This document shows positions 6,001-54,626 of a stretch of DNA of 64,000 nt, one piece after another. The DNA comes from Balanoglossus misakiensis (Eukaryota; Animalia; Hemichordata): assembly GCA_040954595.2 (NCBI GenBank), contig CM082580.2, forward strand, positions 10,518,390-10,582,389, in the 5' to 3' direction. A model generated the notes under the pieces. That model ran no database searches, was not told where the DNA came from, and saw only the letters and a program-made list of their open reading frames with translations. The translations under genes were made by a program, and so were the position numbers. Positions within the stretch are counted from its first letter, which is position 1. Every line of letters starts with the position of its first letter.

Positions 6001-6236
6001 GCTGCCAAAAATGTACTAGTACATAGTAGAAGATCATGTCAAAAATTAAATGTAAAAGCGTGGCACTTACCTGGAACGTAAGCTTGGGCAAGGCCGCATT
6101 TCCCATTGATAATCTGAAGAATTGTCAGCAACCCGGTGATAAAAAGTTTGCCTCCGAACTTTCGAGTCCTGCGCGGCGATTTGTGGCACTGTGTGCATTT
6201 CGAGTGTGATAACGTTGTACACATATCTGTGTTCAT
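90..6236 (-). CDS. Single-pass receptor with cadherin-like, Ig-like and laminin/EGF-like domains (Tie/RET/MEGF-like ectodomain); 3' end lies beyond the window start
   Basis: GT-AG exons: 6236-6071 (signal-like LFITGLLTILQII), 4993-4907, ~4190-4062 (LLDFE), 3943-3818 (ITITDDPDWPPYFN, like the cadherin DxNDNxPxF motif), 3351-3249, 3000-~2852, 2622-2430, 2323-2195 (EGF: CPEGYYSIECTEICICKNGATCHPLNGACKCMPGWHGPAC), 2062-1885 plus 1737-1616 (Ig: TVTW...AGVYEC), 1409-1284 (EGF), 986-780 (EGF), 256-90 (TM GMFAAIIVVLIITASACTIHCVL then RHRR). Phases are consistent from 3943 downward. Exons between 6071 and 4062 are incompletely resolved. Confidence 0.8.
5583..5680. repeat. Inverted repeat: 38-bp arms with 1 mismatch and a 22-nt loop (MITE-like or foldback)
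   Basis: CAATCTGATTAAAATCAGATGTAGGGAACGGCGACGTG (5583-5620) pairs with CACGTCGCCGTTCCCTACATCTGATTTCAATCAGATTG (5643-5680). It lies in an intron of the receptor gene. Confidence 0.9.
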
Positions 6237-9200: not shown

Positions 9201-12200
9201 CAACACAATATTGGCTGCAGATACTGTGGAAACCATTCAAGAATTATTTTTCATTGTACGCTCGCCTTCCGTGAATTCTTATGACAACTCCCTAGGCAAG
9301 ACTGGATCCTGCAAAGGACCGACCGATCCTATACGTCAATATACATTGCACATTGTGTAAGCCTATATTGCGAAATTGATTGAAAGCGAGCATAAATCCC
9401 CATGACAATGCTCTATGGCGATTCGAAGATGCATGGGGAACAAAATCTTCTTTTCATGCGATTGAGCACTGAGGTATAAGATATCCTCTGAAGAGAACCA
9501 TGATCTCCGTGGAAGGACGGCGAATAAGACTGACTAACACACTTCTTTTTCTCAACGCCCATGCATTGATCATGAGAAAATCTTATTGTAAACAACATGC
9601 ACAGCCACACACGGTCTATTAATTGGGATTGGGCTGCCCGTAAGGGCCGCCGCGCCATGTTATTATTTGAAAACTGCCTTTCAATCAACAACCCCTGTCG
9701 TTTCAGTTTGTTTCCATGGGGATGAAGCCGATCTCATGTTTGTAGTATTTTTGCAAAGATAAATGAGTTTCAATTCAGCCTCGATTGTCAAGCGGAATTT
9801 TGCTCGAGGTAGTGTAGATTACAGGGAAGTCAATCTTTTGTTCGAAACTCGAACTACCCAGCTTCATTTTTGTATTAAAAGGAGCGGAGCAGATTTATTA
9901 GTTATATCCAACTACAATATAACGAGAAATGTAATGAACTGCTTGGTCTATCACAATCGCACAACTTTGACAATATTCTGTTTTCGACAATTGAGCGATA
10001 CAATTAAAATACTCTGCATGTCCATCATTGATAAATTTCAAAAGCATTTGAAACTCCTTCAAGCGTCATTCTTTATTTTATTCCAAAGATTACGTGTTCT
10101 TTCTACACTAATCTTGCAGTGCTGTAGCAATGTGTATATACTTTCTATGGTAAATGGTCTACAGTAGAATAATGTTATGAAAACGCATGTATACACCTGT
10201 ATAATCAACTGTATAATTCATTAGAAATTGGTGCTTACAGTCCACATGCAGCTGGTAGATCGTTTAAACTTCCGTATTACGCACACGCACACACGCATAC
10301 AGACGCTCAATAAATACGCGCGCATGTTGCGGATACTGGCCTCAGCGCTATTCCAATATCACCGAACTCAGAATATAATCTACACAATGTATAGGAGGGA
10401 CTCACATTCTACACATGTACAGATTTTAGTACACACATAAGTGAAGCATTGTTACAACAGTTTGCGTTTGTGTTACGGCACATTTACTTTTAGTACTCCC
10501 ATGGGCAGTACGCTGCGGAGTTTATTCTTTCAGGTGGCGTAGTTTTATATCCCCGCAGAAATCATCTTTATTAAAGTTGCAATAATCGACTTTTTTTACT
10601 TAAACGAAATATCGTAACTGCTGATGAATTTCAGCGCGCTGATGTGATGACGGAGCGATAACATGTTTATTGGAAAACTGTGACGCAGCAAAATGGCCTT
10701 CTGCGAAATTAAAATCTTGGGATTCTCTGGTGTGACGTGAATTTTCATTCAAAGCCAGAAGCGCCACACAACGCACGCGTGTATGGATGGAATTGAATGC
10801 AATTGCGCGTGAATTCACTTTTGTCACGTACCTGCAAATAAATTCGCATTTTTCTCATTTCCATGCACAATTAACGAGATAGAAATCGTGAAATATATAC
10901 TTGAGTCGTTCTGAGACGTCGTGAATTTTACTCCGAGAAATATGCCGGATGTGACGTATGTACAGACCTTTGCAAAAAACAAAGCAGTGTAAGTTCGACA
11001 GGCCTATAGGCCGTCAAATGGAAATTCCGCTCTCAGAAGATTAATGGTTCTCCGCACGAGTGTTTGTGTTCATGTATACCCCTCCCCCCTCCTGAATGTT
11101 ACATAGCACGTTACCACCTCGTATTCAGTGACAACAGTTAGCACAAGTAATGGAACAGATCCCTAAGATATTTTTTGGTTAATCGTGTATACCTTCTGGG
11201 TTGGTTGATAATGGAAGTCCCCGTTGGTTTTGCCAATTAATCGAACGTAAGCGGATCTGGTACATTTTAAGTAGGACCGCGAGGGGGAAAAGTACTCAGT
11301 GCCAGGCGTTGTTCGGACTCAGATGTTCCTGTGGCGAAATACCACGTGTTCACTGAGACAATCTCCATTAAAAAAATACATTGTGATTGGATCCCCATTA
11401 CACCGTTTCCCGTCTTCGCGTAAGTGTACCCTCGCAGAATGTTGTTAGAGCACACGTGCAAGGAATGTGTTTTTCACGAGAAGTTTCAATCTAAACGGCG
11501 CAATTCCAGCCAAACCGACGATAAATTAGATCACACATTATTTAGCGTATATGGAACAACACGTACGTGTTTTTGTAAACTAGTCAGAAGTTTACCGTCT
11601 CTTCGTGTATAGAGTTGATCTAAAACATGAGCTCTCCGCCAATGACGCTATAGTCAATCTGGCTGTAAGAGGTCTGTTTCATTTTTCCCCCAAGATTATT
11701 TATAGCAATCTGCTCCGCAAGTCGAAGTAGTCAACTTCATTTTATAACGAGCCGCTTTAGGACACGTTGATATTTTCTCTTTGTTGGTGAACTGAAATGA
11801 GAAACTTGCTCGTCTGATATCTCTCCACAACGCATAACGAATTCTAAAACGGCGCAATATAGAATTTGTCTCCCCGGGCCAAAATACACCACTTCTCTGA
11901 TATTGGACCATTCCACTGCCAAAGATAATGTGACCACTGCTGTTAGGTTCTGGGAGATTGGGCATCGGGGAAATATGCCCAGCTGAACAGAAACGAATAG
12001 AAGGGTCCTTGATAATTCGCAAATGCTTTTTATGCTGCCCAAGTGTGTGTGTAACTACAGATCACGTGGGGGAAGACCGCATTAACAACCCGGAGCAGGC
12101 CAGATCGATATTCATAAGGACTACCCAGCCAATTTAAAATAACCGGCGGGAAGAAAGTAATGGCATGAGATGATAATGTCATATCATAATGGCGGCTTTT

Positions 12201-16692: not shown

Positions 16693-18216
16693 TATCTGCC
16701 CGATATCTTTACACTGCATAGCACATCAGCGACTAATTCCTTATATTTTCCTGAGATTAGACAGGTTTAGCAAGTATTTTTCAGTTGAGAACTGTCTTAA
16801 TAGCAATTTTCTCCACATAAATATTTTAATCTTTGACATAAGCCTGCGTTTTCTGTCTTTCATGTATACGTAGGCGTCACTGACAGCTACATGCGAATTC
16901 AAATTTATTTCGTATTACTTATGAGATAATAACAGACACAGGGTTTCTCATGATAATCAAGAAAGCCAATTTTGTACGTCACAGGCTCATGCAAAGTAAT
17001 TGCTTCTGGAAATCCAAGCAACTGCCCGGCGCCGGCGAGTGGGTGGCCAGTCATTTTCATTGTATTTCACGGAAAAGCCAACTTGCCAATTTGCAGTCAC
17101 GCTGAAATTGTTGCTAGGTGACAGATAAGACGGTCGTCCCATGGGTAGGCTTGTCAATGCCAGAATTATGTCCAGCCGACGTATTTGTCAACGATCTTGA
17201 ATGAAATTTTGCTCGAATGATTTCAGAATACGTGTATTATATTTTTACCGGATGAAAACAGCGTCGGCGTGTATTGTCTGCGAAAATGGCAGGAATGAAA
17301 TTGCGCGCGAAGGGAACGCCTGATTTCCTCTTTGGATCATAACAACCAAAGTAAAACGGTCGATAGCGTATCTGAAGGATCAACATCGGTAATTGAAAAT
17401 GTCCATTGCTCAGTCGTGCGATGACTGACTGTAACAAAAAAAAGAAAGCGAAACACGTGATCAAATGACCTCGTATAACCTCACAAGCAGGCATCCTTTC
17501 TTACAGAATAGATGATTTTCCGGACATTGCGAGATCTCGTCAGACTTGCTTAATTACCGTAGCAACGGGTTGCTAGTCTATTGTAATATACCCTGTATTC
17601 TCATTCCGCAGCCTGTTCCTGTTTGATGCTCACAGAAGTCAACTCTCTCACCTGCCATGTTTGCAAAAGCGTGATCGGAAACCAAGACGCAGACTGTGAG
17701 GGCGCCCCAAACAGCCCGAGGGCATGCATGGCTACAGATAACGAGTTTTGTCTGGTAAGTTTCGTCTTCGTGTTCCATATTGCGAGCAGTACGTGACTCT
17801 TAGTAGTGTTTCACGGAGTTCTTGCGACTTTATTCCCGCAGGCAAGAGTGGCTTTTGTCGGAGACATACTTTCCTCGGTGGTCAGGGCGTGCAGCGAGAC
17901 GTGTGAACCGGACTACTTGTCCTGCCTACAGGAGCACGGCGAATGCACACTCTGCTGCGACACGAACGACTGCAACAGCCGATCCGCCGTCAACGTGGCA
18001 ACCCTGCTGGCCACGGGCGACCCGCCAACGGCAACGCCCCCATCGGCACGGAACACCGCAGAAGCAAACACGGATTACAAAAATTCATCAGGTGCGGCAG
18101 TTATATCGGATGACGACAGAGATCCAGCGGTCACGTATCACGCAATAAACAGAGACAGGATTGCCATTTTTGTCGCCTGTGCGCTTTGGGTTTCATTTAA
18201 TTGTTTAAATTGGTAG
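12811..18216 (+). CDS. Ly6/uPAR (three-finger, LU-domain) protein, probably GPI-anchored
   Basis: join(12811-12844,17612-17754,17842-18216), phases 1 and 0 consistent. Signal MPESPWLPLLVACSCLMLTEVNS, then LTCHVC...C...C...FCL...RACSETC...C...ECTLCCDTNDCN (canonical LU CCxxxxCN end), a T/P/A/S-rich stalk and a hydrophobic C-terminus IAIFVACALWVSF. The exon-1 assignment across a 4.8-kb intron is less certain. Confidence 0.85.
13529..13702. repeat. (ATAAT)n microsatellite grading into (ATTAATAAT)n
   Basis: Directly visible tandem array. Confidence 0.97.
14818..14872. repeat. Imperfect (CTGT/CCGT)n microsatellite
   Basis: Directly visible. Confidence 0.9.
16359..16692. repeat. Compound microsatellite (CATA)n-(CA)n-(CATA)n-(CAGA)n
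   Basis: Directly visible; explains the spurious YIHT/MYVC ORFs. Confidence 0.98.
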
Positions 18217-21981: not shown

Positions 21982-23380
21982 ACTCGTGAGGGCGCGCGCA
22001 CACTTGTACGAACGTGAAAAAACCCTAAAGTTATGTACTCTTTCGACTGTACGTGTAACTCTACAAAACAGAAATTAATCAGGCGTGACGTACCAATCAA
22101 CTCATCGAAATCCTCGATCCGGTATGGTGTAGGGACATATACGTTCCGTAAAACAGACTTCGCTTTCTGCGTCAAGTCACATAGATCGTCGGGCTGAAAA
22201 GTAACGCTTGGAGAATTAGCTCTCGCCTACCCACGTATAGACTAGAAAAAATCAGCCATTCGAGGGCGCTCCTGTCTGCAATTATGCAAAAATGCAAGAT
22301 TTAACCCCCAAAATAAACGCGACTTGTGTACTAACTACGAGCATTGCAGAAACAACGGGTAAATACTGCACAACGTACCGTCAGTGGTAGGGTTATCGGC
22401 CCAAGCATTCGGTGACGCCGATCTCCTCCGCTACGACTTCGGAAGGACCTACTCCCAGATAAAGAGTCCACCAATGCGCTTATCGAAAGGCTCATGTCAT
22501 TTTTTTTTTCACTTTTCGCTTTGAATTTTAATTCCAACACATGCCAGTAAACACGGACGTTCGAATGTTCTATCCGGATTCTCCAGGCAGAATTTACGGT
22601 GTGCCAATCGAACGCACGCAAATTCATGTCATCGGGCGCACGCGTATATACGCGGGCACACGTGGAACCCGGGTTCAGTACATGTATGTACATATACTCT
22701 GTATGTATAACATGTGCGTACTGATTACTAATATTTTGCAGTGTGGCAAATACATACATCTGCCATCTACCCACTTTTGAATATTCATAATACACATGTA
22801 ATTCATGTCCTCGCTGACTCAGTGAGTCTGCTCTCGAATTGGCAAACAAATCATGTTTTGACATCGCGATATTTAGCCTCGTCTATTAGTCACATACTCG
22901 AAATACTTAAATTGAATTATCGGTATTCATAACCATCCGGAACAATGCCACTCTTTCACAGAATCGTGAATATAGAAAGCAGAACAGTTTTATCGACAGC
23001 ATTCATCAACTCTAACAGTTGATTATTTTATTTACTAAAAGCACTTTAGATCCCCTTATAAAATGTATTTCGCATGAAGCTTTCCCATGTGACCCCACCC
23101 GACCGTACATTGTAGACGCACTGTCAACTTGATGGTACTAAAATATAACCAGTTAAATTGGTTACCACTCCCGAAAAATAAACCATATCTTGCCATTTAT
23201 TTTCAGCTAGTACACACTATTTAGATTCTATTGTCTATTTCTGTTATCAAAATATTAATATTAGCATGAGAAACAACAAAGTTTATGCCACCTATAACCT
23301 GTTTATATTTAGACCGAACAGAAATACATGTATGTCATCCGGATAGTCAATGTTGAATTGTTCCGCGCTTTTGTACATCT

Positions 23381-24469
23381 TCAAGTTGTATTTTGTGTTC
23401 TGTTGTCTTTAATCGCAGTAAACATTGTTGCAACGGAACAGACAAGGACTATCCCGCCTCCCAGAAACTCTAGCCAGCTTACGTTCCGGCCGAATACGAA
23501 TACATCGGCCAGAAAGTCAATTATCAGCTGTACGTTGAACAACACCGTTACTTTTGCCGCCGATTCCAGTTGCAAGGCGCGATTAAAGGTGAGGTAGTAG
23601 AGCAGGAAAAAGGCTATCATTCCGAACAAGTAACCGATGTTTCTCGGATCCTTCTCCATTGCTGCGAGTAGAGTGTATTCACTGAACAAAAAGGACAAGG
23701 GCAGCGTGATGACGATGCCAAGAATGCCGTTATAAATCATGATCACCAGAATGGAAAGATCGTCACTCATTGCTTTTGTGCACAGCGCCCCGCAGGAAAG
23801 AAGACCTCCCGTGATGATGGCTAGCATGTATCCCTTCCATTCGGACCCCATGTGCGCGACGAATCCGAAAATGAACTGGGGACGCGTGATCAGGAGGAGG
23901 CCTACCGCGTTTGCCGCGAGTATGACTACCTCAATTACTCCGCATTTCTCAGAAAGAAATATGCAGACCAAGACAGGTGTCATGATTTGAACAAGTCCAA
24001 GGGCAATGGTGGTCGCGTCGCCGATACCGACAAAGATCAGCGAATAATAGAAGATAAGGTCGCCGGCAGTTTCGATGATTCCCTTGGCGATGTTCAACAT
24101 GGCATCCCTTCTTTGGATGTTTAGTAGACTTACGTTGTTGTATAACATGAGCGGTACAATCACGGCGACCATGACGATTGACTTCATCAGCAGTTGTTGT
24201 GAGGGAGACATTCCACCAGACACCCCGAGTAGTATGAAGACATCGGATAAACCCAGAAATATTCCTCCTAGCAGTCCGTACGTGGCACCAGCCACCGCCT
24301 CCCAACAACGTCGCCATGCTTTTTCAGATTTTTTTCCACGTCCCAGCTCATCATGGACCTCGACTTTTTTGTCATCAATTAAGATTTTGTGTCTCTCGGT
24401 CAGTTCCAGAGTCTCGTCACTGTCTTTACACGTACTTGGCCTTCCCCCCATGTTGTCAAATGCCTTCAA
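23381..24469 (-). CDS. SLC35G-like (EamA/DMT superfamily) transporter, copy 1, intronless CDS
   Basis: 362-aa ORF with about 10 hydrophobic segments and EamA motifs (IGDATTI, P..VCIFLSEK, GLLLITRPQFIFG, TFNRALQLESAAKV). Confidence 0.88.
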   Translation of the reverse strand: MKAFDNMGGRPSTCKDSDETLELTERHKILIDDKKVEVHDELGRGKKSEKAWRRCWEAVAGATYGLLGGIFLGLSDVFILLGVSGGMSPSQQLLMKSIVMVAVIVPLMLYNNVSLLNIQRRDAMLNIAKGIIETAGDLIFYYSLIFVGIGDATTIALGLVQIMTPVLVCIFLSEKCGVIEVVILAANAVGLLLITRPQFIFGFVAHMGSEWKGYMLAIITGGLLSCGALCTKAMSDDLSILVIMIYNGILGIVITLPLSFLFSEYTLLAAMEKDPRNIGYLFGMIAFFLLYYLTFNRALQLESAAKVTVLFNVQLIIDFLADVFVFGRNVSWLEFLGGGIVLVCSVATMFTAIKDNRTQNTT

Positions 24470-25170
24470 ACATATATAATGGAATACCGATTATGCCGAT
24501 GATTTAGCCAGCGCTTTAGTACATATATAGGCCTACATAATGTGTGCCCTATTTTAATAGCATTTTGATCTAAAATTAGGGTTACAGGATGAGACAGGTT
24601 AACATTTCAAGCAAGTTTCGGAGCCTTGATCATTATGGTGTAGTCAGGTTGCTAAACCCCGATATTAAGCTTACTTTGAAAATTTTTACATGTGTCATTT
24701 ACATTCTAACCCTCTCCTCGTGCTGATTCATAACCATCCGGAACAATGCCACTCTTTCACAGAATCGTGAATATAGAAAGCAGAACAGTTTTATCGACAG
24801 CATTCATCAACTCTAACAGTTGATTATTTTATTTACTAAAAGCACTTTAGATCCCCTTATAAAACGTATTTCGCATGAAGCTTTCCCATGTGACCCCCCG
24901 ACCGTACATTGTAGACGCACTGTCAATGGTACTAAAATATAACCAGTTAAATTGGTTACCACTCTCGAGAAATAAACAATATCTTGCCATTTATTTTCAG
25001 CAAGTACACACTATTTAGATTCTATTGTGTTTTCTTCTGTTATGAAAATATTAATATTAGCAAGAGAAACAGCAAAGTCTATGCCACCTATAACCTGTTT
25101 ATATTTCGACCGAACAGAAATATGTCATCCGGATAGTCAATGTTGAATTGTTCCGCGCTTTTGTACATCT

Positions 25171-26259
25171 TCAAGTTGTATTTTGTGTTCTGTTGTCTTT
25201 AATCGCAGTAAACATTGTTGCAACGGAACAGACAAGGACTATCCCGCCTCCCAGAAACTCTAGCCAGCTTACGTTCCGGCCGAATACGAATACATCGGCC
25301 AGAAAGTCAATTATCAGCTGTACGTTGAACAACACCGTTACTTTTGCCGCCGATTCCAGTTGCAAGGCGCGATTAAAGGTGAGGTAGTAGAGCAGGAAAA
25401 AGGCTATCATTCCGAACAAGTAACCGATGTTTCTCGGATCCTTCTCCATTGCTGCGAGTAGAGTGTATTCACTGAAGAAGAAGGACAAGGGCAGGGTGAT
25501 GACGATGCCAAGAATGCCGTTGTATATCATGATCACCAGAATGGAAAGATCGTCACTCATTGCTTTTGTGCACAGCGCCCCGCAGGAAAGAAGACCTCCC
25601 GTGATGATGGCTAGCATGTATCCCTTCCATTCGGACCCCATGTGCGCGACGAATCCGAAAATGAACTGGGGACGCGTGATCAGGAGGAGGCCTACCGCGT
25701 TTGCCGCGAGTATGACTACCTCAATTACTCCGCATTTCTCAGAAAGAAATATGCAGACCAAGACAGGTGTCATGATTTGAACAAGTCCAAGGGCAATGGT
25801 GGTCGCGTCGCCGATACCGACAAAGATCAGCGAATAATAGAAGATAAGGTCGCCGGCAGTTTCGATGATTCCCTTGGCGATGTTCAACATGGCATCCCTT
25901 CTTTGGATGTTTAGTAGACTTACGTTGTTGTATAACATGAGCGGTACAATCACGGCGACCATGACGAGTGACTTCATCAGCAGTTGTTGTGAGGGAGACA
26001 TTCCACCAGACACCCCGAGTAGTATGAAGACATCGGATAAACCCAGAAATAATCCTCCTAGCAGTCCGTACGTGGCACCAGCCACCGTTTCCCAGCAACG
26101 TCGCCATGCTTTTTCAGATTTTTTTCCACGTCCCAGCTCATCATGGACCTCGACTTTTTTGTCATCAATTAAGATTTTGTGTCTCTCGGTCAGTTCCAGA
26201 GTCTCGTCACTGTCTTTACACGTACTTGGCCTTCCCCCCATGTTGTCAAATGCCTTCAA
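25171..26259 (-). CDS. SLC35G-like transporter, copy 2
   Basis: 362-aa ORF differing from copy 1 at a few residues (WETVA, GGLFL, MKSLV, FFFSE). Confidence 0.88.
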   Translation of the reverse strand: MKAFDNMGGRPSTCKDSDETLELTERHKILIDDKKVEVHDELGRGKKSEKAWRRCWETVAGATYGLLGGLFLGLSDVFILLGVSGGMSPSQQLLMKSLVMVAVIVPLMLYNNVSLLNIQRRDAMLNIAKGIIETAGDLIFYYSLIFVGIGDATTIALGLVQIMTPVLVCIFLSEKCGVIEVVILAANAVGLLLITRPQFIFGFVAHMGSEWKGYMLAIITGGLLSCGALCTKAMSDDLSILVIMIYNGILGIVITLPLSFFFSEYTLLAAMEKDPRNIGYLFGMIAFFLLYYLTFNRALQLESAAKVTVLFNVQLIIDFLADVFVFGRNVSWLEFLGGGIVLVCSVATMFTAIKDNRTQNTT

Positions 26260-27214
26260 ACATATATAATGGAATACCGATTATGCCGATGATTTAGCCA
26301 GCGCTTTAGTACATATATAGGCCTAAATAATGTGTGCCCTATTTTAATAGCATTTTGATCTAAAATTAGGGTTACAGGATGAGACAGGTTAACATTTCAA
26401 GCAAGTTACGGAGCTCTGATCATTACGGTGTAGTCAGGTTGCTAAACCCCGATATTAAGCTTACTTTGCAAAATTTTACATGTGTCATTTACATTCTAAC
26501 CCTCTCCTCGTGCTGATTACTTGCGCACAGTAAATATACGCGTGATAAAATGCGCCCTCTTTTGGTGAACTCTTCCAACCGCCTGACCTCATACTGTCGT
26601 GTCTGATCAAGGAGTCTTTCAGGGCAGGTTGCCAATCTATGAAACTAAGCTGCAGCGTAAAGTTGGTTCATACATGATGGCAAAATGCTACACTTGATTA
26701 TCATGCTGAGCAAGAACTTCGTCAAAATTAGGCTAGTCATGACAATAAAGGAAATAAACATACTGAATTTTATACAACAAGCTGAATACTTGATACCAGA
26801 TGGTACATGCTATAGACCTGGAACCTGCAGTCCAAAGAAAGAAGGGAAAAAAAACACTGAAAATTGTCTGACTTGGTTATCAGATTTATTAAACAATGAA
26901 ACGTGTTCACTACATAAACATTTCAATGGACGCTGGAAAATAACACGACTCCATGATAACACACAGGTCTTAGACAATTGAAATATCCACTACGATAAGC
27001 AGGGATAAGCCAAGAAATTCGAATGAGTTAAACACCAGCTCTCCCTATCTACTTCAAATACACAAAATCAAATACTATCAAACATTAACATTCCCGAGCT
27101 CTGGATTAATTGACCCTTAAAATCATATTCGACCTTTATACAGATCGTAACAAAGCCAAGAGATAACCATGATGATATCGGTTCGTTGAATTGTCCCGCG
27201 CCTTGTGTACATCT

Positions 27215-28267
27215 TCAAGTTGTGTTTTGTGTTCTTGTGTCCTTTAACACAGTCATCACTGTTGCAAGGGAACAGACAAGGACTATGTGGCCTCCCAGAA
27301 TCTCTAGCCAGCTCACGTTCCGGCCGAACACGACTACATCGGCCAGAAAGTCAATTATCAGCTGTACGTTGAACAACACCGTTACTTTTGCCGCCGATTC
27401 CAGTTGCAAGGCGCGATTAAAGGTGAGGTAGTAGAGCAGGAAAAAGGCTATCATTCCGAACAAGTAACCGATGTTTCTCGGATCCTTCTCCATTGCTTCG
27501 AGTAGAGTGTATTCACTGAAGAAGAAGGTCGTGGGCAAGGTGATGACGATGCCAAGAATGCCGTTATAAATCATAATTACCAGAATGGAGAGATCCTCAC
27601 TCATTGCTTTTGTGCACAGCGCTCCGCAGGAGAACAAACTTCCAGCGATGATGGCCAGCGTGTATCCTCTCCATTCCGATTCCCCTCGCTCGACGAATCC
27701 GAAAATGAAGTTAGGACGCGTGATGAGGATGAGCCCTGCCGCGTTTGCCGCAATTGTGACTATGTCAACGAGTTGACACTTCTCAGAAAGAAATAGGCAG
27801 ACCATGACAGGTGTAATGATCGGAACAAGTCCTATGTAAATGGTGGTCGCGTCACCGATACCGACAAAGATCAGCGAATAATAGAAGAGGAGGTCATCCA
27901 TATTTTCGATGATTCCCTTGGCGATGTTCAACATGGCATCCCTTCTTTGGATATTTAGTAGACTTACGTTGTTGTATAACATGAGCGGTACAATCACGGC
28001 GACCATGACGAGTGACTTCATCAGCAGTTGTTGTGAGGGAGACACTCCGCCAGACACCCCGAGTAGTATGAAGACATCGGATAAACCCAGAAATATTCCT
28101 CCTAGCAGTCCGTAAGTGGCACCAGCCACCGCTTCCCAGCAACGCGGTGCTCTTTTCTCGGCATTTTTATGTCCCAGCTCATCATGGGGCTCCACGTTGA
28201 TTTTGTATGTACCGTTCAGTTTTAAAGTCTCGATATCTTCAATACATATACTTGGTCTTTCATCCAT
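27215..28267 (-). CDS. SLC35G-like transporter, copy 3 (older paralog)
   Basis: 350-aa ORF with the same motifs; diverged N-terminus and central region, with near-identical patches elsewhere. Confidence 0.88.
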   Translation of the reverse strand: MDERPSICIEDIETLKLNGTYKINVEPHDELGHKNAEKRAPRCWEAVAGATYGLLGGIFLGLSDVFILLGVSGGVSPSQQLLMKSLVMVAVIVPLMLYNNVSLLNIQRRDAMLNIAKGIIENMDDLLFYYSLIFVGIGDATTIYIGLVPIITPVMVCLFLSEKCQLVDIVTIAANAAGLILITRPNFIFGFVERGESEWRGYTLAIIAGSLFSCGALCTKAMSEDLSILVIMIYNGILGIVITLPTTFFFSEYTLLEAMEKDPRNIGYLFGMIAFFLLYYLTFNRALQLESAAKVTVLFNVQLIIDFLADVVVFGRNVSWLEILGGHIVLVCSLATVMTVLKDTRTQNTT

Positions 28268-29018
28268 GTTGTCGAATACCCCTCTCTTATGTCGGTTGAT
28301 GTCAAGCGTGCAGATAAATTATCTAAAGCTTAACACGATATAGGTTAATCTGTATGGTAAGAATATGTGCCCGTTTTACCATATCAATGCCCAATTAGAT
28401 TGAAATAGCAAAAATTTGAAATGGGCGAACGTACTCCGGCCAGGATATACCTGCATTTATTACAGCCAACGCTAAAAACAGGTTCAGCTCTATTGTATTA
28501 TGCCCCTGTCCCGTTCATCATATCAGTAAAAACTCTTCATGAATCACAATTAAGGGACTGGTGCATCTATTCCTTTGGCTCGATTTACAATCTGCACTTA
28601 ATAAAGATGTGGTCATTGAGATTGTCATTAAGGACGTTTACAGCGTTTGTCCTTGTTATCTGTATATGAGAACCAAAAAATACACTCGTCGAGTCAATAA
28701 TTGGCGTGAGGGAGCAGGTGTCTGGGTTGGGGATTGGACACGTAGGCTGAAACCATGACCGTAGTTGGCGCCTCAGTGGCCAATATGTGAAGAGGCCATC
28801 GACCCTGTAAGCAGTGGTATAACTTTCATTCATAAAATCAAGTCAACTTTGACATTTTATATTTTTACGTCCACGGTATCATGGTATTACGTATCAGACT
28901 GTAAACTATTAGAGGCTGCGTCCTATGGTTAAGATCTCATGAGGAACTTCATGTTCATATTCTGAAAATCAGGCTCACAAAAATCCAACTTATGTTATGA
29001 TCGATATCGCCTGAATCG

Positions 29019-29496
29019 TCAGTCCAAACAGTGGGAATGACACGAACAGTCGCTGCGTAAACCGTTGGGAATGAAGTATCTGTCTTTTTCTTTCCACACA
29101 ATTCCGGTGATCAGCGTGGAGCTGAGAAGAACCAGAACTACCCCGACGATCTCCCACCACCGTGCACTGTGGTGGAACATCAGCGCCCGGGTGAAGTAGT
29201 TTACGACGACGACGATGGAGGCCAAGAAAGCGACCTTCCCGGCAGTTTCCAGCTGCAGGGCTCGGTTGAAAGACCACAAGTGGGGGACGAAGAGGAGACA
29301 GGCGGCGCTGACGTAGCCGTAGGTGGCCGGGGAGGCGACGAGGGTGTCTATCAGGGGTTTATCGGCGGTGAAATAGACGGCGGGTATGGCGATCACCAAC
29401 CCCGTGAGACCGTTGACGAACATGATGAACGCGACTTGAAGTTCGCGGTCAACTGCGCGGACCATCACCGCCCCGCACGGATATAATAGAGAAGAG
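29019..29496 (-). pseudogene. 3'-half fragment (second EamA repeat) of a divergent SLC35G-like gene
   Basis: SSLLYPCGAVMVRAV...SFNRALQLETAGKV...WWEIVGVVLV aligns with the C-terminal half of copies 1-3. It is preceded by an acceptor-like TTTTTATTAG ending at 29497. No N-terminal half was found before the ABCG stop at 30000. Confidence 0.65.
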
Positions 29497-29999
29497 CTAA
29501 TAAAAATTAAAAATCAAGTTTACAAGAAATATTGCATAATTAGTGAGCAGTATGAGATAAGGGGAGCAACCTGTATGTCCACATTTGTCAAATTGCACGC
29601 TTCAAAATAATACTAGTTTCAAATTGTCTCATGCGACTCATGCGCAGATGAACCGCTCTGATACAGTAATCACGTATTTGGTTCAAAATAGAAAAAGAAT
29701 AAATATGTCTGAAATAGTAGGAAAAGAAGGGTTTTATTCGATAATAAGATAATTATTTACATTCATGGTATGAAAGATAACAAATTATACATATCAACAC
29801 CTTCCTTAAAAAAATCATCCATATCATTCCCGCTATTCCTCGTGTAAATATATGAGTAAATAGTGAAAGGGGCAAAACATCATTAACTTAAGTAGAGACT
29901 GGTTTCTTTATACGAACTTCAATGATATGTGTTTGCCCCCCCCCCCCCCAAAAAAAATGTCGTCCCTATCAAACAATCGCCTTCTCGCCGCTGCCCAGT

Positions 30000-32900: not shown

Positions 32901-35858
32901 CAGCCATGTAGGAATCTAAGCCACAGGTTGGTTCGTCACACAGCATTATGTACGGATCTGTCAGTAACTGCAAAATGGTAATGACACTGTAAGGTTAGCT
33001 TTCCTTATTCAGTGTGGGACGTCGGCATAGAAGAATATTCATGAACTAAAAGACAGGTTAACTACTAGTACATAATACGGTTTAGGGTCACCGATTCAAA
33101 TTTGAGCTCTACCTCTGTCGCGAACGACAATCTTTTCTTCTCCCCACCGGATAAATCTTTTATTTTGCTTTCGGATACGTCGCCAAGACCAAGCTGAATC
33201 AGAGCTGTGTTAATCTTTTCCTCTCGTGACCTCGGTGACGTGTCCGCCTCCATACGTAGGATAGCCTGTGTTGGAAATTTAAACATGTTAGTCTATCAGT
33301 AACAGGTTAATGTGTATATATTATGCTGATGATGGTGATGAAACGCAAAATGGAAGAAACGTCAATTACAACTAGTCTGAAATGTTGTTAATACCGCTGC
33401 AGACTGTTATAAAATCAACTTACATGAAAGTTTAAATGTTCCCTCGCTGTTATAGCTTGGATGAAAAGATCAACCTGTTCAACATAAGCTATGCTTCGTT
33501 TGCTGAACGCAGTGGTGACTGGATTCCCATTGGCTGTGACTGCGCCCTCGATGAACAGGTTGCCTTGGAGATGTTCCCTTCCCGACAGCACGTTGAGTAA
33601 TGTCGTTTTGCCAGACCCACTGTTGATATATGTATAGATGAAGTGAGTCAATTTCAGACGAAGTAGCAACAAAAATGCATATACATAGTCTAGCTTGTAC
33701 GGCTTAATTGTCGAACGTTCATCGTTGGTGTCGTCATTTTCGAGTGGATGTTGACAATATTTTTTTTCAAAGAGCATTTGTCATGAAAGCAACTATCAGA
33801 AGTTACTTTATGGTCTTCAGAAAAAAAATACAATTCATGATGTCCTACCTCGCTCCCATAATGGCCAGGATATGCCCCGGTTCCGCCAAACCAGACACTG
33901 TCAAGAGAACGCAAAACTGTTGTCATGTCAACCAACCGGGCGTACAGAATATCATGCAGACGCACGTGACTCGATCGGACCATAAAATACGCTGCGGTGA
34001 TATATGACCAGGTGACCTTGTAGAACAGTTGTTTTCTCCATAATGACACGTTAATGATAATTTTTGAAGCGCTACAACGTCTGGCATCCATGATTTATCC
34101 ACGGGACAAGTGACAACTGTTCCCGTCGTAACACCTGAACGGCCGGGTACGTTAGTTTCGCAGGCCGTACCATTATGGGTGTATAGCTGCAGTCAGTGGG
34201 ATGACTGGGCGCCAATGAGCGATGCCCGCACACGTTGTTACACAAGGCAACAATGGACTCGCATAACGCATTGTACACACCGGTATATTATACTGTTAAG
34301 GTCTCTTTCATCGAGCCAAAGAATGAAGCACAAACGAATGAAGAATTCAGAACGACGTTATGTAACCCACGGTTTGAAGTACGGGAAGGGCAACAGGTAT
34401 AACAACATACCTCCATGCAGTACAGTCTTTGGATTCGGCGGTTCCTCGTCTGTCCCACGCAGTCTTTTCAACTTCTCGTAGCATCTCTCCTCCGGCGGCA
34501 TGGCCGTGGCGTGGATGTCTGTCCATGTCAGCACGTATGGGCCCTTGCGGCGCCTTCTCTGTTCTGCTATGTCTGTCTGTATTCGAAGCCGGCGAATTAG
34601 TATTAACTCAACAATTTTCGATGAAAATTAAATTTAAAGGAAACATCATATCGTGGCAACTTTCTCGCGTAAGCCGTCTTGCATTCACTTGCTTTCGATA
34701 ACGGCACTTTTCCATTTGTGTTACATGTATTGTGATTTCATACAATTGAAAACAACACATTTATCACCCCCCCCCCGAATTGAAACCATTACTGTTCTTC
34801 GCAGTCATTTTTCACAGTCATGTTTGGTACCACCCAGTGACACCGGGTGGTTCGCATTAATTAGCATATGTCCGACATCACAGCCTTTTGTGTAAACGTA
34901 CGCGACTATATATCATCTCTCTTATTATAATAGATGTTAAATGAGAACAATATTCAAACTAGTGATGTCGCAGCTTGTATTCCTGGTGACGGAAAGCCGA
35001 TGAAAATTGGCAGAGTTGCTAATCATCTACTAGTATTTAATATGTCATGTGATGAAAATATCAAACCGCCGACGTGGGTGGTTTCGTGAAATATGCATTG
35101 CATTTTACCGCTATAATATAGTTGGATATTAATCTCAAAGTAGGACGCTCTCTTTGCGTATACAGTTCACAAATACTCAACAGTGTTCCGTAGCAATTCA
35201 GAAACAACGCACTAAATTGCCCAACCCAACCAGAACGTCCCGGCGGCGACGGGACAATGGAAAATGCCGGTACCCAGGAAAGTTTAGCTAAATCAGGCAC
35301 AGACGGCTGTATGCAACTGCTCGTTTCCACCCCCTTCACCGCCACATTGAAAAAACAAACAGAAAAAATAATGATAAAATGCGTTTTGACGCGCCGACTC
35401 ATAGATGCTATTAATAGACGATGCGAGCACGTTCTGTTTTTTTATGGGCGTGGCGATATTAATAACACCAAGAGTGCCATACTACAGAAATAACCGTGCT
35501 ACCAACTTTGTGTAAATTTAATTAACTCATAGTTTCCAGCTTATGAATTTACACTGCAGAATAACGCACACATGTAGTACTCTTACTCAGATAAAAATAT
35601 TAATTTTCCAAAGGATTGAAACAAAAGGGACATTTAAAGCCTAAAATAAATAATATAAACAAGTCTGTAATATTACAGCGTTTCAGAAAGTATTGGGGTG
35701 TTGGTGAAATCGGTGACTATAAAACATGTCAGTTTGGCCAAACATAGGCTGTCTGCAAATTGTTGAATATATTTACCGAGGACCGGCGACATGTTTAGAG
35801 TACATGTACTTACCAGTTCGAACTCCATGAACCGACGAATCTCAGCCAGAGACGCCAT
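30000..35858 (-). CDS. ABCG half-transporter, white/scarlet-like, ~649 aa, 15 coding exons
   Basis: Exons 35858-35814, 34576-34411, 33897-33849, 33619-33424, 33265-33113, 32967-32801, 32691-32517, 32325-32204, 32079-31845, 31600-31508, 31388-31331, 31157-31080, 30863-30758, 30534-30360, 30131-30000 join in frame. Walker A GASGSGKTT, signature [12 protein letters not shown], Walker B/D-loop [12 protein letters not shown]-loop TVHQP, then the ABC2 membrane domain ([25 protein letters not shown]). Confidence 0.95.
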
Positions 35859-40917: not shown

Positions 40918-41328
40918 ATGATCGACAAAACATATCCAGGCGGATTCACTGTTAGCGATCTGCAGCAGCTGTTGAGAGACAACATATCCAAGATCGACCA
41001 AGACACCAGACTGATGCTGCAGCACGCCATCACCCTTGTTGGCAAATCCAGCTGGTCCAGGTGGAACAACACCATGATCGAAATGCTCGACAAGTCGATG
41101 ACCCCCGTGGTTACCGTGAGATCTGGAAGTTGCGCCAACCACGTGTGTATCCACTTCGACGGCGGAGATAGACCAGCCGACTACTACAAGAGGAAGGGCT
41201 GGGGGTATTGGCTGTACGAGAGAGTGATCACCGCCTGGGATAAAATCGTCGACACTGCGATGCGAGGTGCAGTCGGGGCACTGACGGGCAAAGTTGTAAT
41301 TGCAGCAATAGATTATAAAAAGAAATAA
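40918..41328 (+). CDS. Uncharacterised 136-aa protein, single coding exon
   Basis: Acceptor TTTTTTCGCGCCAG|CCGCAAAATG just before the ATG. Coding-like GC3-rich codons. MIDKTYPGGFTVSDLQQLLRDN...GWGYWLYERVITAWDKIVDTAMRGAVGALTGKVVIAAIDYKKK. Confidence 0.75.
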   Translation: MIDKTYPGGFTVSDLQQLLRDNISKIDQDTRLMLQHAITLVGKSSWSRWNNTMIEMLDKSMTPVVTVRSGSCANHVCIHFDGGDRPADYYKRKGWGYWLYERVITAWDKIVDTAMRGAVGALTGKVVIAAIDYKKK

Positions 41329-41718: not shown

Positions 41719-44653
41719 TTACAGTGGGCAATTGGAATGAGATGTTCTAAAGATCTCTATTTCCATATCCGAATAAGAAATCAGATGGTTGCCGTAGGTG
41801 GGGTGGTACTCGTGGTAGGCCTTGGACTGGGCCAGCTGGAAGAAGTCGACGTAGTAGTACGGGCTCGACTTGTGGGAGCGCCCGCAGGTGTACTCGTCCA
41901 GGCTGCTGTCGAAGAGGTTGATGGCCACGCGCTTGTATTCGCCGTACTGTCTGGGCACGCGGTCCGGGTGGCTGAAGACGTTCTCGGTGGTGATCGCCTT
42001 CAGGTACATCTCGTCGCCGATCAGGTTCTTTTTGTACGTCGCGAAAGTTACCGTTTCTGCAAGAGATGATCATCATGAAGTTACGAGTTTTGCCCCCCCC
42101 CCCAAAAATCACGCCCTTAGATTTTTATCATGTACATGTACTGTTATGCAAACATGACCGTCCAGAGAAAACTGACACGGGTCAGCATGGTCTGAAACCG
42201 AAATCGAGGAGTTAAACTGAATACACACGATATCATGGTGGACCGTTGATAAAATTAGTTTCCACGAAAGTCCATCCACATCTTACAACTGTGTGACTTG
42301 TACACACGACTCGCCTTTTAATTAACAAATTATTATTCAACGTGTATGTTAATGTTGTACACACGCCACGCGTCATAACAGGTGTACGCACATTAACGCC
42401 TTTTAAAAGAAGAATACTATGCAAATGAGATATTGGATGCACGCAGCACATGTACTCACTTGTAGTGAAGTCATAATTGTCTTTGTCCGTCAAGTAGTGA
42501 CAGCCCACATTCTCGATGCTGAAAATGCTTGGGTTGGCGCCCACGACAGCGTTTTCAATGTCTGCAATGTAGACTCCGTGTTCTCCAAGTACCTGTTGTG
42601 CATAAAGATGATCAAGAAATAGCCGGTAACAGTTCCGACTGCGCTCGTGCATATGGGGTGAGTTGATGAGCTAAATACTTAACACCTCGCCATAAGTGTA
42701 GAAAATGGAAGAAATGAGAGTTTCAAGTGACCAACCACTTGACAGCTTTCGGGTATTAAGGCGGGTGGGTCATATAGAGGAATTGGTTTAGGTTCCCACG
42801 GGACGGGCCCGGGAGGTGTGCGACTTACGCTGCCATATTGGTTGTTTGTTCCGACGTTGTAAATCGCGAGTGCCGTGTTCTCGTCCATCCCGATGCCGAG
42901 CGTGGCTCCTCTCGATTGGTCTTTTGTATCCGCGAGAAGTCTTACCAGTCGCCCTTCCCTGCCGCGTTCACTGAAACGAGACCATGTGTGTGTTGAGTTT
43001 TTTTAAACAAAAAAGAAAACAGTGTTCATGCTAGTATAGAGCTAACAAAGAGAAGTTGGCGGCCATTTTGAATTTTCATTTTTTTTTTCAAATCAACAAT
43101 GTACCTGAAGTGAGTATCTAGCACGACGTTGTCAATCAAGCCAAGCCCGCCGTATTCGTCGTATATCAGGCCGTCGATCGGATCGTCCGGGTGTATCTTA
43201 CACGCGCAGGCTCCGTGAACCAGACCTGACCAACTGAGGCCGCCGGTTACCATGACAGATGAACTTTGACACACCGTCCCGGCACTGGTTCCTCCCACAA
43301 CCGCGCCGGCCGCGTATTCCTCCTTCAGCGCCACTAATGCAGGGGACTCAACGCGACCACTGAGGAACCAGCTGTATATCAGCAGAGGGCACAGAATAAA
43401 AGGTAACAGAATATTAATAAGGGACATGGCGAATACACAGTGTGTATTTTATCAACTGAGGTAATGCCTGAGACAAGGTGACCCAGAAAATAGAAAATGT
43501 GGGACTCGGAAAAAGAAAAATCTTTAAAATAACAACATTTGCAACTCATCACAGTGACAATAATGGTTTTATTCCTTTAGTGGCTGTCAGACAGCAAAAA
43601 ACTAAATTATTATTTCAGTGAGTATTCTTTACCTCTCTACAACACGTGACTGATCACCGCCACCAAAGAAGAAACCTGTCTGTTGGTGAATATTATTCAC
43701 CACATCCGGGTCACTGTTGTTCTCTTTACTGCAGGCGAAGAATAATTATGCGAAGTTGAGTTTACTCAGCTAGTTATATAGCGAAAGGTCTCCACGCGTT
43801 CGAGAAGAATAATTCAGTATAATATATTTCACTACAGTATTCCACGAGAAAATGAAATCCCTAGACCAAATGTTAAGGGTTAGGAACAGCACGATATGAT
43901 TGCGGGTACGTGCATGTGGTTGTGCAATTCGTCAGCTTCGCACACTGACAACATGGCGGACATAACGGAAGAGACTCACGTGTCAACAGTAATGGGTATC
44001 CAATAGGCGCTGGCGGCGCCGTACACGTTCACAAACATGTTTTCATAGTACAACCAACTGTCCCATGGGTCAGACGACGCTGTCGTGGCAACGCCGATCT
44101 TGGCGACACCTACGCCGCCCTGATGTTAGGAGGAAATATTGGAAGTCGGGAGACTTTGTTAATAAATGAGACGGATTTAGTGGGAAGGATAAACTGACTG
44201 CTGTAACTCTTGCGTCTCAGTTCACAAAATAGGGTCTTTTGAACGTGTCAAGATATAAATCTGGGGCTATTTTACCGCATTTGTATTTGTCGAATGCTCC
44301 ATGCCCTAAATCGTAAGCGCACAGGGTAGGGTATAGGGTAGGGTAGGGTAGGATGGAGGGTGAGGCAGATGGTTGCCTGTTTTGATCTCGAGAGAGAAAA
44401 ATTCCGTAAGATGGTTACACGTAGTCCATTCAATTCTGTATGTCGATAACATTAATATATAGCTGCGCCCCATTTGCAGTTTGTCTCGTGTCCCACGCAC
44501 GAACAGCAGTCCACTTACCGCAAGGTTGATGACTTCGTTCCAGATGGCGGCATTGTTGTCTTCGAGGCCACCGCCGACCAAGACCAGGTTTTTGGCGGCG
44601 CCAGCAAACGCTGCCGCCAGGCAAACGAATGCCAAAGTCAATGTGACTCTCAT
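41719..44653 (-). CDS. Secreted cyanophycinase-like serine peptidase (family S51, CphB/CphE-like), ~416 aa, 7 exons
   Basis: complement join(44653-44519,44119-43980,43728-43633,43371-43105,42970-42829,42592-42460,42056-41719), 1251 nt, phases consistent. Signal peptide, LVLVGGG, KIGVATTAS, GFFFGGGDQ, nucleophile GTSAG, DTHFSERGREGRL and GIGMDENTA. Confidence 0.92.
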
Positions 44654-52177: not shown

Positions 52178-54626
52178 TTACAAGTACAGTGACAACAGCT
52201 TTTCTATGAATTCGACGTTTCCCGCGAGCCGTGCATTGTTTCTCGGAGGCTGTGACGCGTCCGCGCGCGAGAAGTCGCCAAGGGCGGCCGGGTCAACGTC
52301 GTCCCATTGATTCCAGCTGGAGGAGGTGTGACTGTTACTGGCGTCGAGGTCGAGGTCCAGAGGCGGGTCCCGAGGCGAGGCCCGTCGCGACATGCGGAGT
52401 CGCAGGCACATGCCGTAAACACAGGCCGTTGTGCAACACCGGCAGGGTCCTCTACAGGTCAGGCTCCTGTCCGACCTCTCCGGGACGGCCAATCTTGCGC
52501 CGCCGCCGCTGCGTTTGATTCCGTCGGCTAGTTCAGATGTCACACCCTCTAGGTCTCCAAAGGGGTACAGTGTCATCGGGTAGGCTGTGGCGTAACAAGC
52601 CACGGTTAACAGCAGCACTACGCTGAGCGACCATTGATATAGGGACATCTGAAAGCAAACAAACAAGTGGTTTGATGACATGATACATTGGAAAATATAG
52701 CTGCAACTAGCCTGAAAATCCAACTGACCCAATTTGAGTATGATTTTTCCAAGACGGAAACGATTCTAACAATTTCCACCATTACTGTGAAAAAGCCTTG
52801 CCCCGTACAAGATGACCTCAGTAATTAAAAAACAAATTTGCTGTTCTGAGAATTTCTTGTAGTTTTACGGCTTTTCCTATTAATGTAATGCACGCCGCTG
52901 ACAAAATATGGAGGGCCGCGCAGCCTTAGAGATTAGGAAACCCCCGCTGTACAGTTGATAAATTAAGTAGTTGAGGTTGCGCTGCGACCTCACAAATGGT
53001 TTCTTATCGACCAGACTAATTTGTAGAAAAGAATACTAGTAGTACGGGGACATTTCTATATGTTATGAGTATACGTATTGCTGGCGCCTGGCGCCTGTTG
53101 TCACTAACTGGGCGTGGTCTTTCTCCCGATTTAACTTTTACTATACATGGCCACCACGGTGACGTTTGTCAGCGCAGACATGTTCAGAGTACGTTTCTTA
53201 ATCTTGTCGGTGGTGAGTTAAAAAGACCCAGCGGCGACCTGGATGTGCGCGCGAGGACAAGATAATCAAAATTGTTTCTCGCCTTCACGGGTACAATGTG
53301 CGCAGACGGTGTCTTCACCAAGCCCAATGGGCGCAGACGCCCCGGCAACCTCGCCGTCTACTTCAAAACATCGCGACTGCGCGGCATTCCATAAAGACAT
53401 GCACACCTGATAAATGTTCACGAGTATCACAAGTCATTGACATCGCTGAAATGGTGCCGTCATGTATGGCCCAGTCAGTGATATTTTCCAATATCGGCAC
53501 ATCATATCGTCTCATCTGAAAATACGTCCTGGCAATATAATTGGCTCGACGGCAACATGATTATCTGAGATTCGAATCTTTCCCAGTGACTGAGCTTCAG
53601 GAAGACTTTATACCGGTGCGCCACATTCTCGACACACGCACATATTTACACCGTGGATTCATGCATACAGTATACCCCCAGGCTCAACATGGGTACGGGT
53701 GTGATATGGAAGATTCAACCCTAAAGGCCATCACGATAGTGGTTAATAAAAAAATTGGCGTCGGCGATAAAGGTATCGCTTAAATTACAGGTGTTGCCTG
53801 CAAGGGATGTGGGCAGGTTAGGGTGTTTCCGGCTCAAACAGCGCGGACGAGGAAATAATCACGATCCGGTTTTATCGGCTCAAAATCCGACTCCAATAAT
53901 CGGACGTGAGCTGACGTTGTTGACAGAGAAGATGTAAATGCGTGAGCGGGTCAAAAGTTCACAATCGATGCCCAGAGCGAAAACCGCTAAGAAATCACGA
54001 TCCACGGTACCCACGAGATTCAGCAGGAAATACAAAATGGTTTCATGCTACCCCCTTTACCATTCGATACAGTAACACCCACGGAGAGTTTATAACACAT
54101 TGGGATGCACACATTCTAGTACAATTGTTGTCACGACCATCACCGCTCACCTACGAAAAGTTGGGCAATTTTAGCGACTTTTTACATCTTGATTACCTAG
54201 ACGGCTTTCGATTTTGTGTCCGAAACTGTTCACCCTTAAATTGAAGGGGGAAGGGGGAGTCCGTTTGGAAGTACATGTAGTCCATGCATTGTTTATGGCC
54301 ACGCTACGTGCAATGATAATCACGCAAATATCTGTCATCGCTTCCACAAGAACATCTAACAGAACACCTATATGCAAAGATTTTGCTTTTCGTATACATC
54401 AGGTGAATTGACCACTAGAAATGGCCGGACTGGAACGTGCCGTTGGTTTAGCCCTTGATCAATATGTCGTAAAAGAAATCCGGGGACGGATGAGATTATT
54501 GACAGTCAGTGGAACAGAGATTACATTGGAGGGGAAAGCCAAGACTCCGTGTACTCGCACTGCTTCAACGTTGAAAAAGAAAAGGCGCAAACTTACCATA
54601 CATACTGCGTTGCTCTGAACTGCCAT
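52178..54626 (-). CDS. Secreted prepropeptide releasing a six-cysteine peptide (neuropeptide/toxin/antimicrobial-like)
   Basis: Main exon 52648-52178 follows TTTCAG|ATG. A probable in-frame upstream exon is 54626-54597 (aacATGg; MAVQSNAVCM|GTAAGT). Signal WSLSVVLLLTVACYATA, acidic propeptide, KR and RSDR sites, SLTCRGPCRCCTTACVYGMCLRL, RMSRR, then an acidic C-terminal propeptide. Confidence 0.8.

Follow-up and report, generated by a model that had tools for sequence, protein, structure and literature searches.

Published passages describe cyanophycin as resistant to ordinary proteases and as undigested in mice, and ascribe its breakdown in the gut to bacteria. The enzymes of the CphE type, as described in passages of PMC3235067, are cyanophycin-specific serine proteases yielding Asp-Arg dipeptides; the same passages name Gln101, Asp172, Gln173, Arg178, Arg180 and Arg183 as the critical residues of CphB and describe all of them as retained in CphE except Gln173, which is replaced by Thr. 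The CphE proteins of Pseudomonas anguilliseptica BI (CPHE_PSEAG, P0091) and P. alcaligenes DIP1 have about 417 residues, a signal peptide, a catalytic triad, a pocket of Gln, Asp and three Arg residues, a Thr before the catalytic His and a C-terminal extension. CphB of Synechocystis PCC 6803 (PDB 3EN0, 7UQW; profile TIGR02069) is a cytoplasmic protein of about 270–290 residues, and the aspartyl dipeptidase PepE (Salmonella; Xenopus 7C9B/7FFP) shares the S51 fold and a Ser-His-acid triad. Here, we analysed a 64-kb stretch of contig CM082580.2 of the acorn worm Balanoglossus misakiensis, hereafter the window, which carries a gene for a peptidase of this family. On balance, we favour the view that the gene encodes an intact animal CphE-type peptidase, likely secretory, which likely cuts cyanophycin from eaten bacteria and was likely inherited from the bilaterian ancestor, as part of a still older family found in eukaryotes that eat microbes.

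The gene lies on the minus strand and comprises seven exons separated by six GT-AG introns with phases 0,2,2,2,0,1 (Table 1). Its coding sequence of 1251 nt encodes 416 residues and a stop codon without any internal stop. The splice sites resemble the consensus, with the donors GTAAGT, GTGAGT, GTAAAG, GTACAT, GTAAGT and GTGAGT for introns 1–6 and acceptors containing 9–11 pyrimidines per 15 nt. The spliced protein aligned with the NCBI protein P0002 of Glandiceps talaboti over 416 of 416 residues with 74% identity and no gaps, and because of this full-length match, chance splicing is an improbable source of the exon model. At the level of the sequence, the seven-exon model can be regarded as confirmed, real and intact, its splicing being supported by homology. 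The GC content at third codon positions (0.67) lies within the range of five neighbouring open reading frames (ORFs; 0.55–0.69), and the window contains a single cyanophycinase copy. The original prediction, an earlier reading of this stretch of DNA, had claimed six spliceosomal introns and flanking animal genes. The introns were found as described, and the flanks, which contain an ABCG-like exon, three intronless EamA genes and microsatellites, look eukaryotic. Bacterial contamination, misassembly or a dead pseudogene would be an extremely improbable explanation: the context of the contig was judged within the 64-kb window, but the six canonical introns, the open frame, the eukaryotic flanks, the gap-free match to a protein encoded on a 29-Mb acorn-worm contig and the orthologues on chromosome-scale contigs in many animals all argue against it.

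The window protein contains the motifs GGGDQ (Q118), GTSAG (S153), DTHF (D209 and H211), R215/R217/R220 and GMDENTA (D242/E243). S153, in a GxSxG nucleophile motif, H211 and E243 make up a Ser-His-Glu triad, in agreement with the triad given for CphE in the relevant passage of PMC3235067. Five of the six CphB specificity positions are retained (Q118, D209, R215, R217 and R220), and the sixth, Gln173, corresponds to Thr210, which is exactly the CphE pattern. The N-terminus is hydrophobic in a crude screen, the best 9-mer scoring 2.7 compared with none of 34 internal windows reaching 2.0, and the chain after residue 20 has a mass of 43.3 kDa. The protein is 42% identical to P. anguilliseptica CphE over 375 residues, including the C-terminal extension. 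Thus, the features that mark CphE, namely a signal peptide, a mature chain of about 43–45 kDa with the extension and a Thr before the His, recur in the window protein. In contrast to the bacterial CphE, the window gene is a eukaryotic nuclear gene with six introns and encodes seven cysteines, and it does not group with Pseudomonas CphE (approximately unbiased (AU) test, p 0.0002). The full triad, the signal peptide and the CphE-like N- and C-terminal additions had all been foreseen in the original prediction and were recovered in the spliced protein, the signal peptide as the hydrophobic N-terminus and the extension by its alignment with bacterial CphE. The prediction had also stated that all CphB specificity residues were present; the five retained residues bear this out, but its list had omitted CphB Gln173, where Thr stands here as in CphE.

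Profile and structure comparisons place the protein in the same family. The TIGR02069 cyanophycinase profile was matched separately by exons 3, 4 and 5. The orthologue P0002 scored 119.7 against this profile, under the curated cut-off of 126.6, compared with 128 for authentic CphE, 116.8 for a protein of Aquipseudomonas alcaligenes (P0108), 336 for a CphB-type control and 111.6–140.7 for six other animal proteins (oyster 131.4, Tigriopus 140.7). The cut-off is non-discriminating here because CphE-type proteins fall on both sides of it and authentic CphE barely passes. For PF03575 (Peptidase S51), P0002 scored 32.2 against a cut-off of 23.9, and exon 4 of the window gene alone scored 16.9, under the cut-off. 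As a structural proxy we used a model of P0002, built from an alignment of 74 sequences (predicted local distance difference test score, pLDDT, 95.6). It matched CphB (3en0) with a Z-score of 31.9 and a root-mean-square deviation (r.m.s.d.) of 1.8 for 258 aligned residues, pseudo-CphB with a Z-score of 30.6, an actinobacterial peptidase with 22.2 and Xenopus peptidase E with 18.7 (r.m.s.d. 2.9, 220 aligned), and Foldseek returned the same order of classes. P0002 gave no match to the PepE-type profile NF003642 at E-values up to 1. We therefore rejected a PepE identity, given the missing NF003642 match and the Z-score for CphB of 31.9 compared with at most 18.7 for PepE; the PepE-like proteins that we compared lack the DxHF-x-x-R-G-R-x-x-R pocket. 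Fold and profile are in line with the earlier statement that the protein is not a dipeptidase E. The intracellular CphB type was rejected on account of Thr210 in place of Gln, the signal peptide and the length of 416 residues. The window family shares with CphB the catalytic fold (seen in the orthologue model), the triad and five of six specificity residues, whereas CphB lacks the extension of about 105 residues, is about 23% identical and falls in the outgroup of the tree. Taken together, the comparisons support the assignment of the window protein as a predicted secreted CphE-type S51 peptidase, not of the PepE type, with an apparently intact substrate pocket.

The extension in exon 7 (41722-42054, minus strand) folded alone with a pLDDT of 89.4 and had no structural match at Z ≥ 5. 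Its best weak match was the C-terminal part of an S51 enzyme, and S51 chains ranked 1, 10 and 41 (Z 2.9–4.3, 66–79 aligned residues). These ranks hinted at an internal duplication as the origin of the extension, which a profile comparison left unsupported (9.3; shuffled mean 8.9, maximum 15.1).

The enzyme probably acts on cyanophycin. The signal peptide would direct it either into the lumen of the gut or into lysosomes that serve digestion, where Ser153, activated by His211 and Glu243, might attack the poly-aspartate backbone at the alpha-peptide bond. Gln118, Asp209, Arg215, Arg217 and Arg220 would hold the beta-Asp-Arg unit like their counterparts in CphB, so that exopeptidase cleavage of the backbone could release beta-Asp-Arg. 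An isoaspartyl dipeptidase, either an IaaA-type homologue or one supplied by gut microbes, may then free Asp and Arg; animal homologues of the IaaA-type enzyme are mentioned in PMC10206079. Cyanophycin synthetase was reported in 1614 of 27,349 complete bacterial genomes, most of them non-cyanobacterial, and cphA1 is described as common also in Betaproteobacteria and Firmicutes. Because cphA1 is common outside cyanobacteria, the stores in question are better called bacterial, and the mining of nitrogen stores in the original prediction can be kept with this wider term in place of "cyanobacterial", which is too narrow.

Two observations on the side of function weigh against this reading. The structure PDB 7uqv, titled "pseudo-CphB", shows the same GGDQ, GTSAG, DxHF-RGR and DE motifs, and this protein is reportedly inactive. 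Because a pseudo-CphB carries them, the motifs may not guarantee activity. Furthermore, mice absorb beta-Asp-Arg and yet did not free Arg from it, as stated in a passage of PMC5399006, for which reason the second step should not be taken for granted in animals. The substrate might have drifted to isoaspartyl (beta-Asp-X) peptides of damaged proteins, to another microbial isopeptide polymer or to a host substrate, leaving a housekeeping or defence hydrolase. S51 peptidases readily switch substrate, with MccG, PepE and proteins without peptidase activity as examples discussed in PMC9239234. A polyadenylated "cyanophycinase" transcript tabulated in abalone soft tissue, in the expression table of PMC4661900, counts by its presence for the favoured reading and by its level, low (1–13 reads per kilobase per million, RPKM) and higher in small animals, for a change of substrate. 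The retention of motifs in pseudo-CphB, the sub-threshold TIGR02069 score of the orthologue and a Ptychodera paralogue without the nucleophile also speak for such a drift. Nevertheless, the whole Gln/Asp/three-Arg pocket is retained in 32 of 36 animal proteins, the window protein lies inside the clade that holds the characterised CphE, and the TIGR02069 cut-off does not discriminate at these scores. We consider a change of substrate improbable and cyanophycin the better candidate.

To find relatives, the best 120 of 2404 proteins from an orthologue search and the best 120 of 409 from a second search were examined, and 30 clusters were looked up. The animal homologues among the matches listed come from the hemichordates (Glandiceps talaboti, Ptychodera flava), three amphioxus species, two lampreys, a brittle star (Amphiura), Capitella, bivalves, gastropods including Haliotis, a chiton, Daphnia, Artemia, Tigriopus and Hyalella. 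They are orthologues or close relatives of the window protein, about 38–49% identical to it in other phyla, and many carry the automatic database label "cyanophycinase-like", as had been expected of uncharacterised invertebrate homologues. The triad is retained in 35 of 36 named animal homologues of 250–520 residues, and the triad with all five pocket residues in 32, at a mean column identity to the window protein of 0.42. The exceptions are three amphioxus proteins with one Arg-to-Lys change and one Ptychodera paralogue without the Ser. The hydrophobic N-terminus was seen, with the same crude screen, in 32 of 39 named animal proteins, most of the seven failures looking truncated, and in 7 of 7 protist proteins, named or from transcriptomes. 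As separate observations, the Ptychodera flava paralogue P0003 carries Gly where the catalytic Ser would be expected and Ser at the position of the first pocket Arg, and from these replacements is likely an inactive or binding-only copy; Daphnia and several bivalves have two or more paralogues.

Besides bilaterians, the family occurs in four lineages of eukaryotic supergroups (SAR, Amoebozoa, Discoba and Metamonada). The carriers are the chrysophytes Pedospumella encystans and an Ochromonadaceae species, the ciliate Furgasonia blochmanni, Pelomyxa schiedti, two Anaeramoeba species and Willaertia magna. These protists are phagotrophs; nassulid ciliates graze on cyanobacteria, and larval lampreys filter-feed. 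All eight catalytic and pocket residues are retained in 8 of 9 protist proteins, either named or from MMETSP/EukProt transcriptomes. A chrysophyte-type locus (L113) contains introns, and on the contig that encodes P0134 of the ciliate/Willaertia group (L108) the cyanophycinase gene stands beside Ras and APEH genes, for which reason the protist copies appear to be real eukaryotic genes and not simple contaminants. The bacterial members belong to Pseudomonadaceae, Chloroflexota, Tumebacillus, actinomycetes and some cyanobacteria. Among the 18 bacterial loci scanned for neighbours, 5 had genes for amino-acid-binding proteins, OprD porins or M20 peptidases next to the cyanophycinase gene. A search of the ESM Atlas gave bacterial cyanophycinase clusters only. 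The cyanobacterial CphE-type genes were seen in Calothrix, Nostoc, Crocosphaera and Pleurocapsa (L040 3917-5308, L076 3944-5359, L118 5674-7110), several with signal-like N-termini, and Nostoc sp. WHI has two CphB-type genes besides its CphE-type gene.

A predicted extracellular cyanophycinase of Pyrenophora and other Pezizomycotina fungi is a described eukaryotic parallel and was reported as horizontally acquired, with Spirosoma as its top match, in a passage of PMC3612039. No named fungal protein was among the matches listed; a passage of PMC5567314 calls the function of fungal S51 proteins unknown. Our literature search, which covered the main text of freely available papers, brought up no study of the function or phylogeny of a cyanophycinase from animals or protists, and the only animal mention was one row of the abalone expression table in PMC4661900; transfer tables in the supplements of genome papers might list the gene. 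The window gene is a member of an apparently undescribed eukaryotic branch of the CphE family, neither peculiar to this genome nor a demonstrated bacterial transfer.

The descent of the gene was examined with a careful tree of 52 rows computed with IQ-TREE (LG+C20+F+G4, posterior mean site frequency profiles), leaving out the long outgroup rows L095 and P0211. PepE was too distant for inclusion, and CphB-type and other outgroups were used. The CphE-type clade, including the characterised CphE and the window protein, was set apart from CphB and the other outgroups with 100/100 support. Within it, the 15 animals formed one clade (99/97), which joined the chrysophytes and Pelomyxa (89/83, unstarred), and the 14 bacterial CphE rows (84/62) grouped with Anaeramoeba and Willaertia/Furgasonia (95/91). 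In a quick tree of 76 rows without outgroup, the animals, chrysophytes, Pelomyxa and relatives stood on one side and every named bacterium and the remaining protists on the other (SH-like approximate likelihood ratio test, SH-aLRT, 100). AU tests on the quick tree, with groups chosen after earlier trees had been seen, rejected the grouping of the animals with the 14 bacterial CphE (p 0.009), with Pseudomonas CphE as given above, and with the four closest Chloroflexota/Tumebacillus proteins (p 0.00002). One clade of all 30 eukaryote-side rows was not rejected (p 0.16), whereas in the best tree the eukaryotes are not one clade. A scan of GTDB covered 50 of 64 parts and retained 80 of 557 loci, none of which fell among or beside the animals in a FastTree of 390 rows. 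The FastTree runs left out rows with an alignment shorter than 250 or 230 residues (16 in one run and 9 in another), and a rooting inside the animals with distant outgroups was treated as a long-branch artefact. On a 76-kb copepod-like metagenome contig (L137), two intron-rich cyanophycinase genes lie in tandem (5640-10040). The protein from this contig falls with those of copepods (96), and both genes have an intron at the codon and phase of intron 4 of the window gene.

Orthologues in other animal phyla led us to reject a lineage-specific transfer into acorn worms, and vertical inheritance of the gene within bilaterians is very likely. The original prediction had presented the gene as bacterial in origin and as an old acquisition, whether of this animal or of animals. 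Its old origin stands, in the form of one animal clade descended from a bilaterian ancestor, but the bacterial donor is not supported as framed, given the three AU rejections, which concern sampled donors, and the protists as nearest neighbours. It had counted a vertically inherited pan-eukaryotic clade against itself; such a clade was approached by the AU test of one eukaryote clade, but is not proven, and SAR is split. A direct origin of the gene from one of the sampled bacterial CphE lineages seems rather improbable, and its deeper history may be one of vertical, protist-to-animal or eukaryote-to-bacterium descent.

Several findings stand against the favoured line of descent as well. Only one of the six introns is common to L137, the other five of the mapped copy differing, and none is common to the chrysophyte locus L113; we estimate the chance of one accidental intron match at roughly 3–10%. 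The best non-animal BLAST matches are bacterial (Tumebacillus 295 bits compared with 244 for the best protist). The topology of the gene tree differs from that of the species tree, with the two SAR groups apart and crustaceans in two places, and several rows of the 52-row tree are compositionally skewed. The animal-protist grouping is unstarred at its 89/83, and eukaryote monophyly is merely not rejected. Finally, no named cnidarian, sponge, choanoflagellate, insect or jawed-vertebrate match was among the matches listed, where absence is not shown and a gap between animals and protists remains.

An active cyanophycinase might instead have moved from a bacterium into an early animal on the bilaterian stem, with separate transfers into several protists or, as a variant, from protist to animal. 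The bacterial BLAST scores, the patchy distribution in eukaryotes without a named non-bilaterian animal or choanoflagellate among the matches listed, the eukaryotes not forming one clade in the best tree and the transfer from bacterium to fungus published in PMC3612039 are consistent with it. However, the AU tests reject the animals grouping with sampled bacterial CphE, none of the retained GTDB loci stands by the animals, chrysophytes and Pelomyxa are nearest to them, and the high bacterial scores accompany short bacterial branches, which makes such a transfer unlikely. The opposite direction is also a doubtful proposal. In it, phagotrophic eukaryotes would have used a secreted CphE-type cyanophycinase for digestion since ancient times, possibly since their last common ancestor, and the CphE seen in bacteria (Pseudomonas, Chloroflexota, actinomycetes and some cyanobacteria) would have arisen by eukaryote-to-bacterium transfer. 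The proposal is based on the nesting of all 14 bacterial CphE rows among eukaryotes (95/91) in the rooted 52-row tree, to which the AU test leaves an alternative (p 0.16). If true, grazers as different as ciliates, chrysophytes, Daphnia, oysters and lampreys would have retained an ancient enzyme.

Inheritance from a bilaterian ancestor remains the reading that we favour, and the window gene looks like a sound functional lead. Should zooplankton, bivalves, acorn worms, amphioxus, lampreys and bacterivorous protists produce a cyanophycinase themselves, grazers would have direct access to the nitrogen that cyanobacteria and other bacteria store as cyanophycin, which would matter for the value of cyanobacterial blooms as food and for the use of cyanophycin in feeds. 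The "cyanophycinase-like" database labels on many orthologues and the fungal precedent were already known, and the headline of horizontal transfer is weakened here.

Table 1. Positions in the 64-kb window of the parts of the cyanophycinase gene and of neighbouring features
Feature	Position	Strand	Description
Exon 1	44519..44653	-	aa 1-45; start codon, predicted signal peptide (~aa 1-20), first strand (VGGG); corresponds to Glandiceps P0002 aa 1-45
Intron 1	44120..44518	-	399 nt, phase 0, GT-AG
Exon 2	43980..44119	-	aa 46-92
Intron 2	43729..43979	-	251 nt, phase 2
Exon 3	43633..43728	-	aa 92-124; GGGDQ; Gln118 (43650-43652), equivalent of CphB Gln101; TIGR02069 E 0.0018
Intron 3	43372..43632	-	261 nt, phase 2
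Exon 4	43105..43371	-	aa 124-213; nucleophile Ser153 (43284-43286), Asp209, Thr210, catalytic His211 (43110-43112); TIGR02069 E 3.3e-7
Intron 4	42971..43104	-	134 nt, phase 2, in the codon after His-Phe; position and phase common to two tandem copies on copepod-like contig L137
Exon 5	42829..42970	-	aa 213-260; pocket Arg215/Arg217/Arg220, Asp242, catalytic Glu243 (42880-42882); TIGR02069 E 2.1e-4
Intron 5	42593..42828	-	236 nt, phase 0
Exon 6	42460..42592	-	aa 261-305; catalytic fold ends here
Intron 6	42057..42459	-	403 nt, phase 1
Exon 7	41719..42056	-	aa 305-416 and stop; C-terminal extension as in bacterial CphE and protist homologues, not in CphB
Candidate polyadenylation signal AATAAA	41657..41662	-	57 nt past the stop; sequence match alone
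Intronless EamA-type transporter tandem array	22925-29513	-	two copies 97.6% over 1.8 kb, third ~89.5%, distant fragment 29019-29513
ABCG/white-type transporter exon	33415-33780	-	Walker A motif
Single-exon 136-aa ORF	40918-41328	+	convergent with the cyanophycinase gene; GC3 (GC content at third codon positions) 0.66, coding-like; no Pfam match over cut-off, no usable Atlas match
Peptide-precursor-like ORF	52178-52648	-	hydrophobic N-terminus, Lys-Arg site, six-cysteine stretch; no Pfam match
Cysteine-rich stretch with hydrophobic tail	17797-18216	+	no Pfam match

Among the neighbouring features, the cysteine-rich stretch presumably resembles the last exon of a Ly6/three-finger protein with a glycosylphosphatidylinositol (GPI) anchor.

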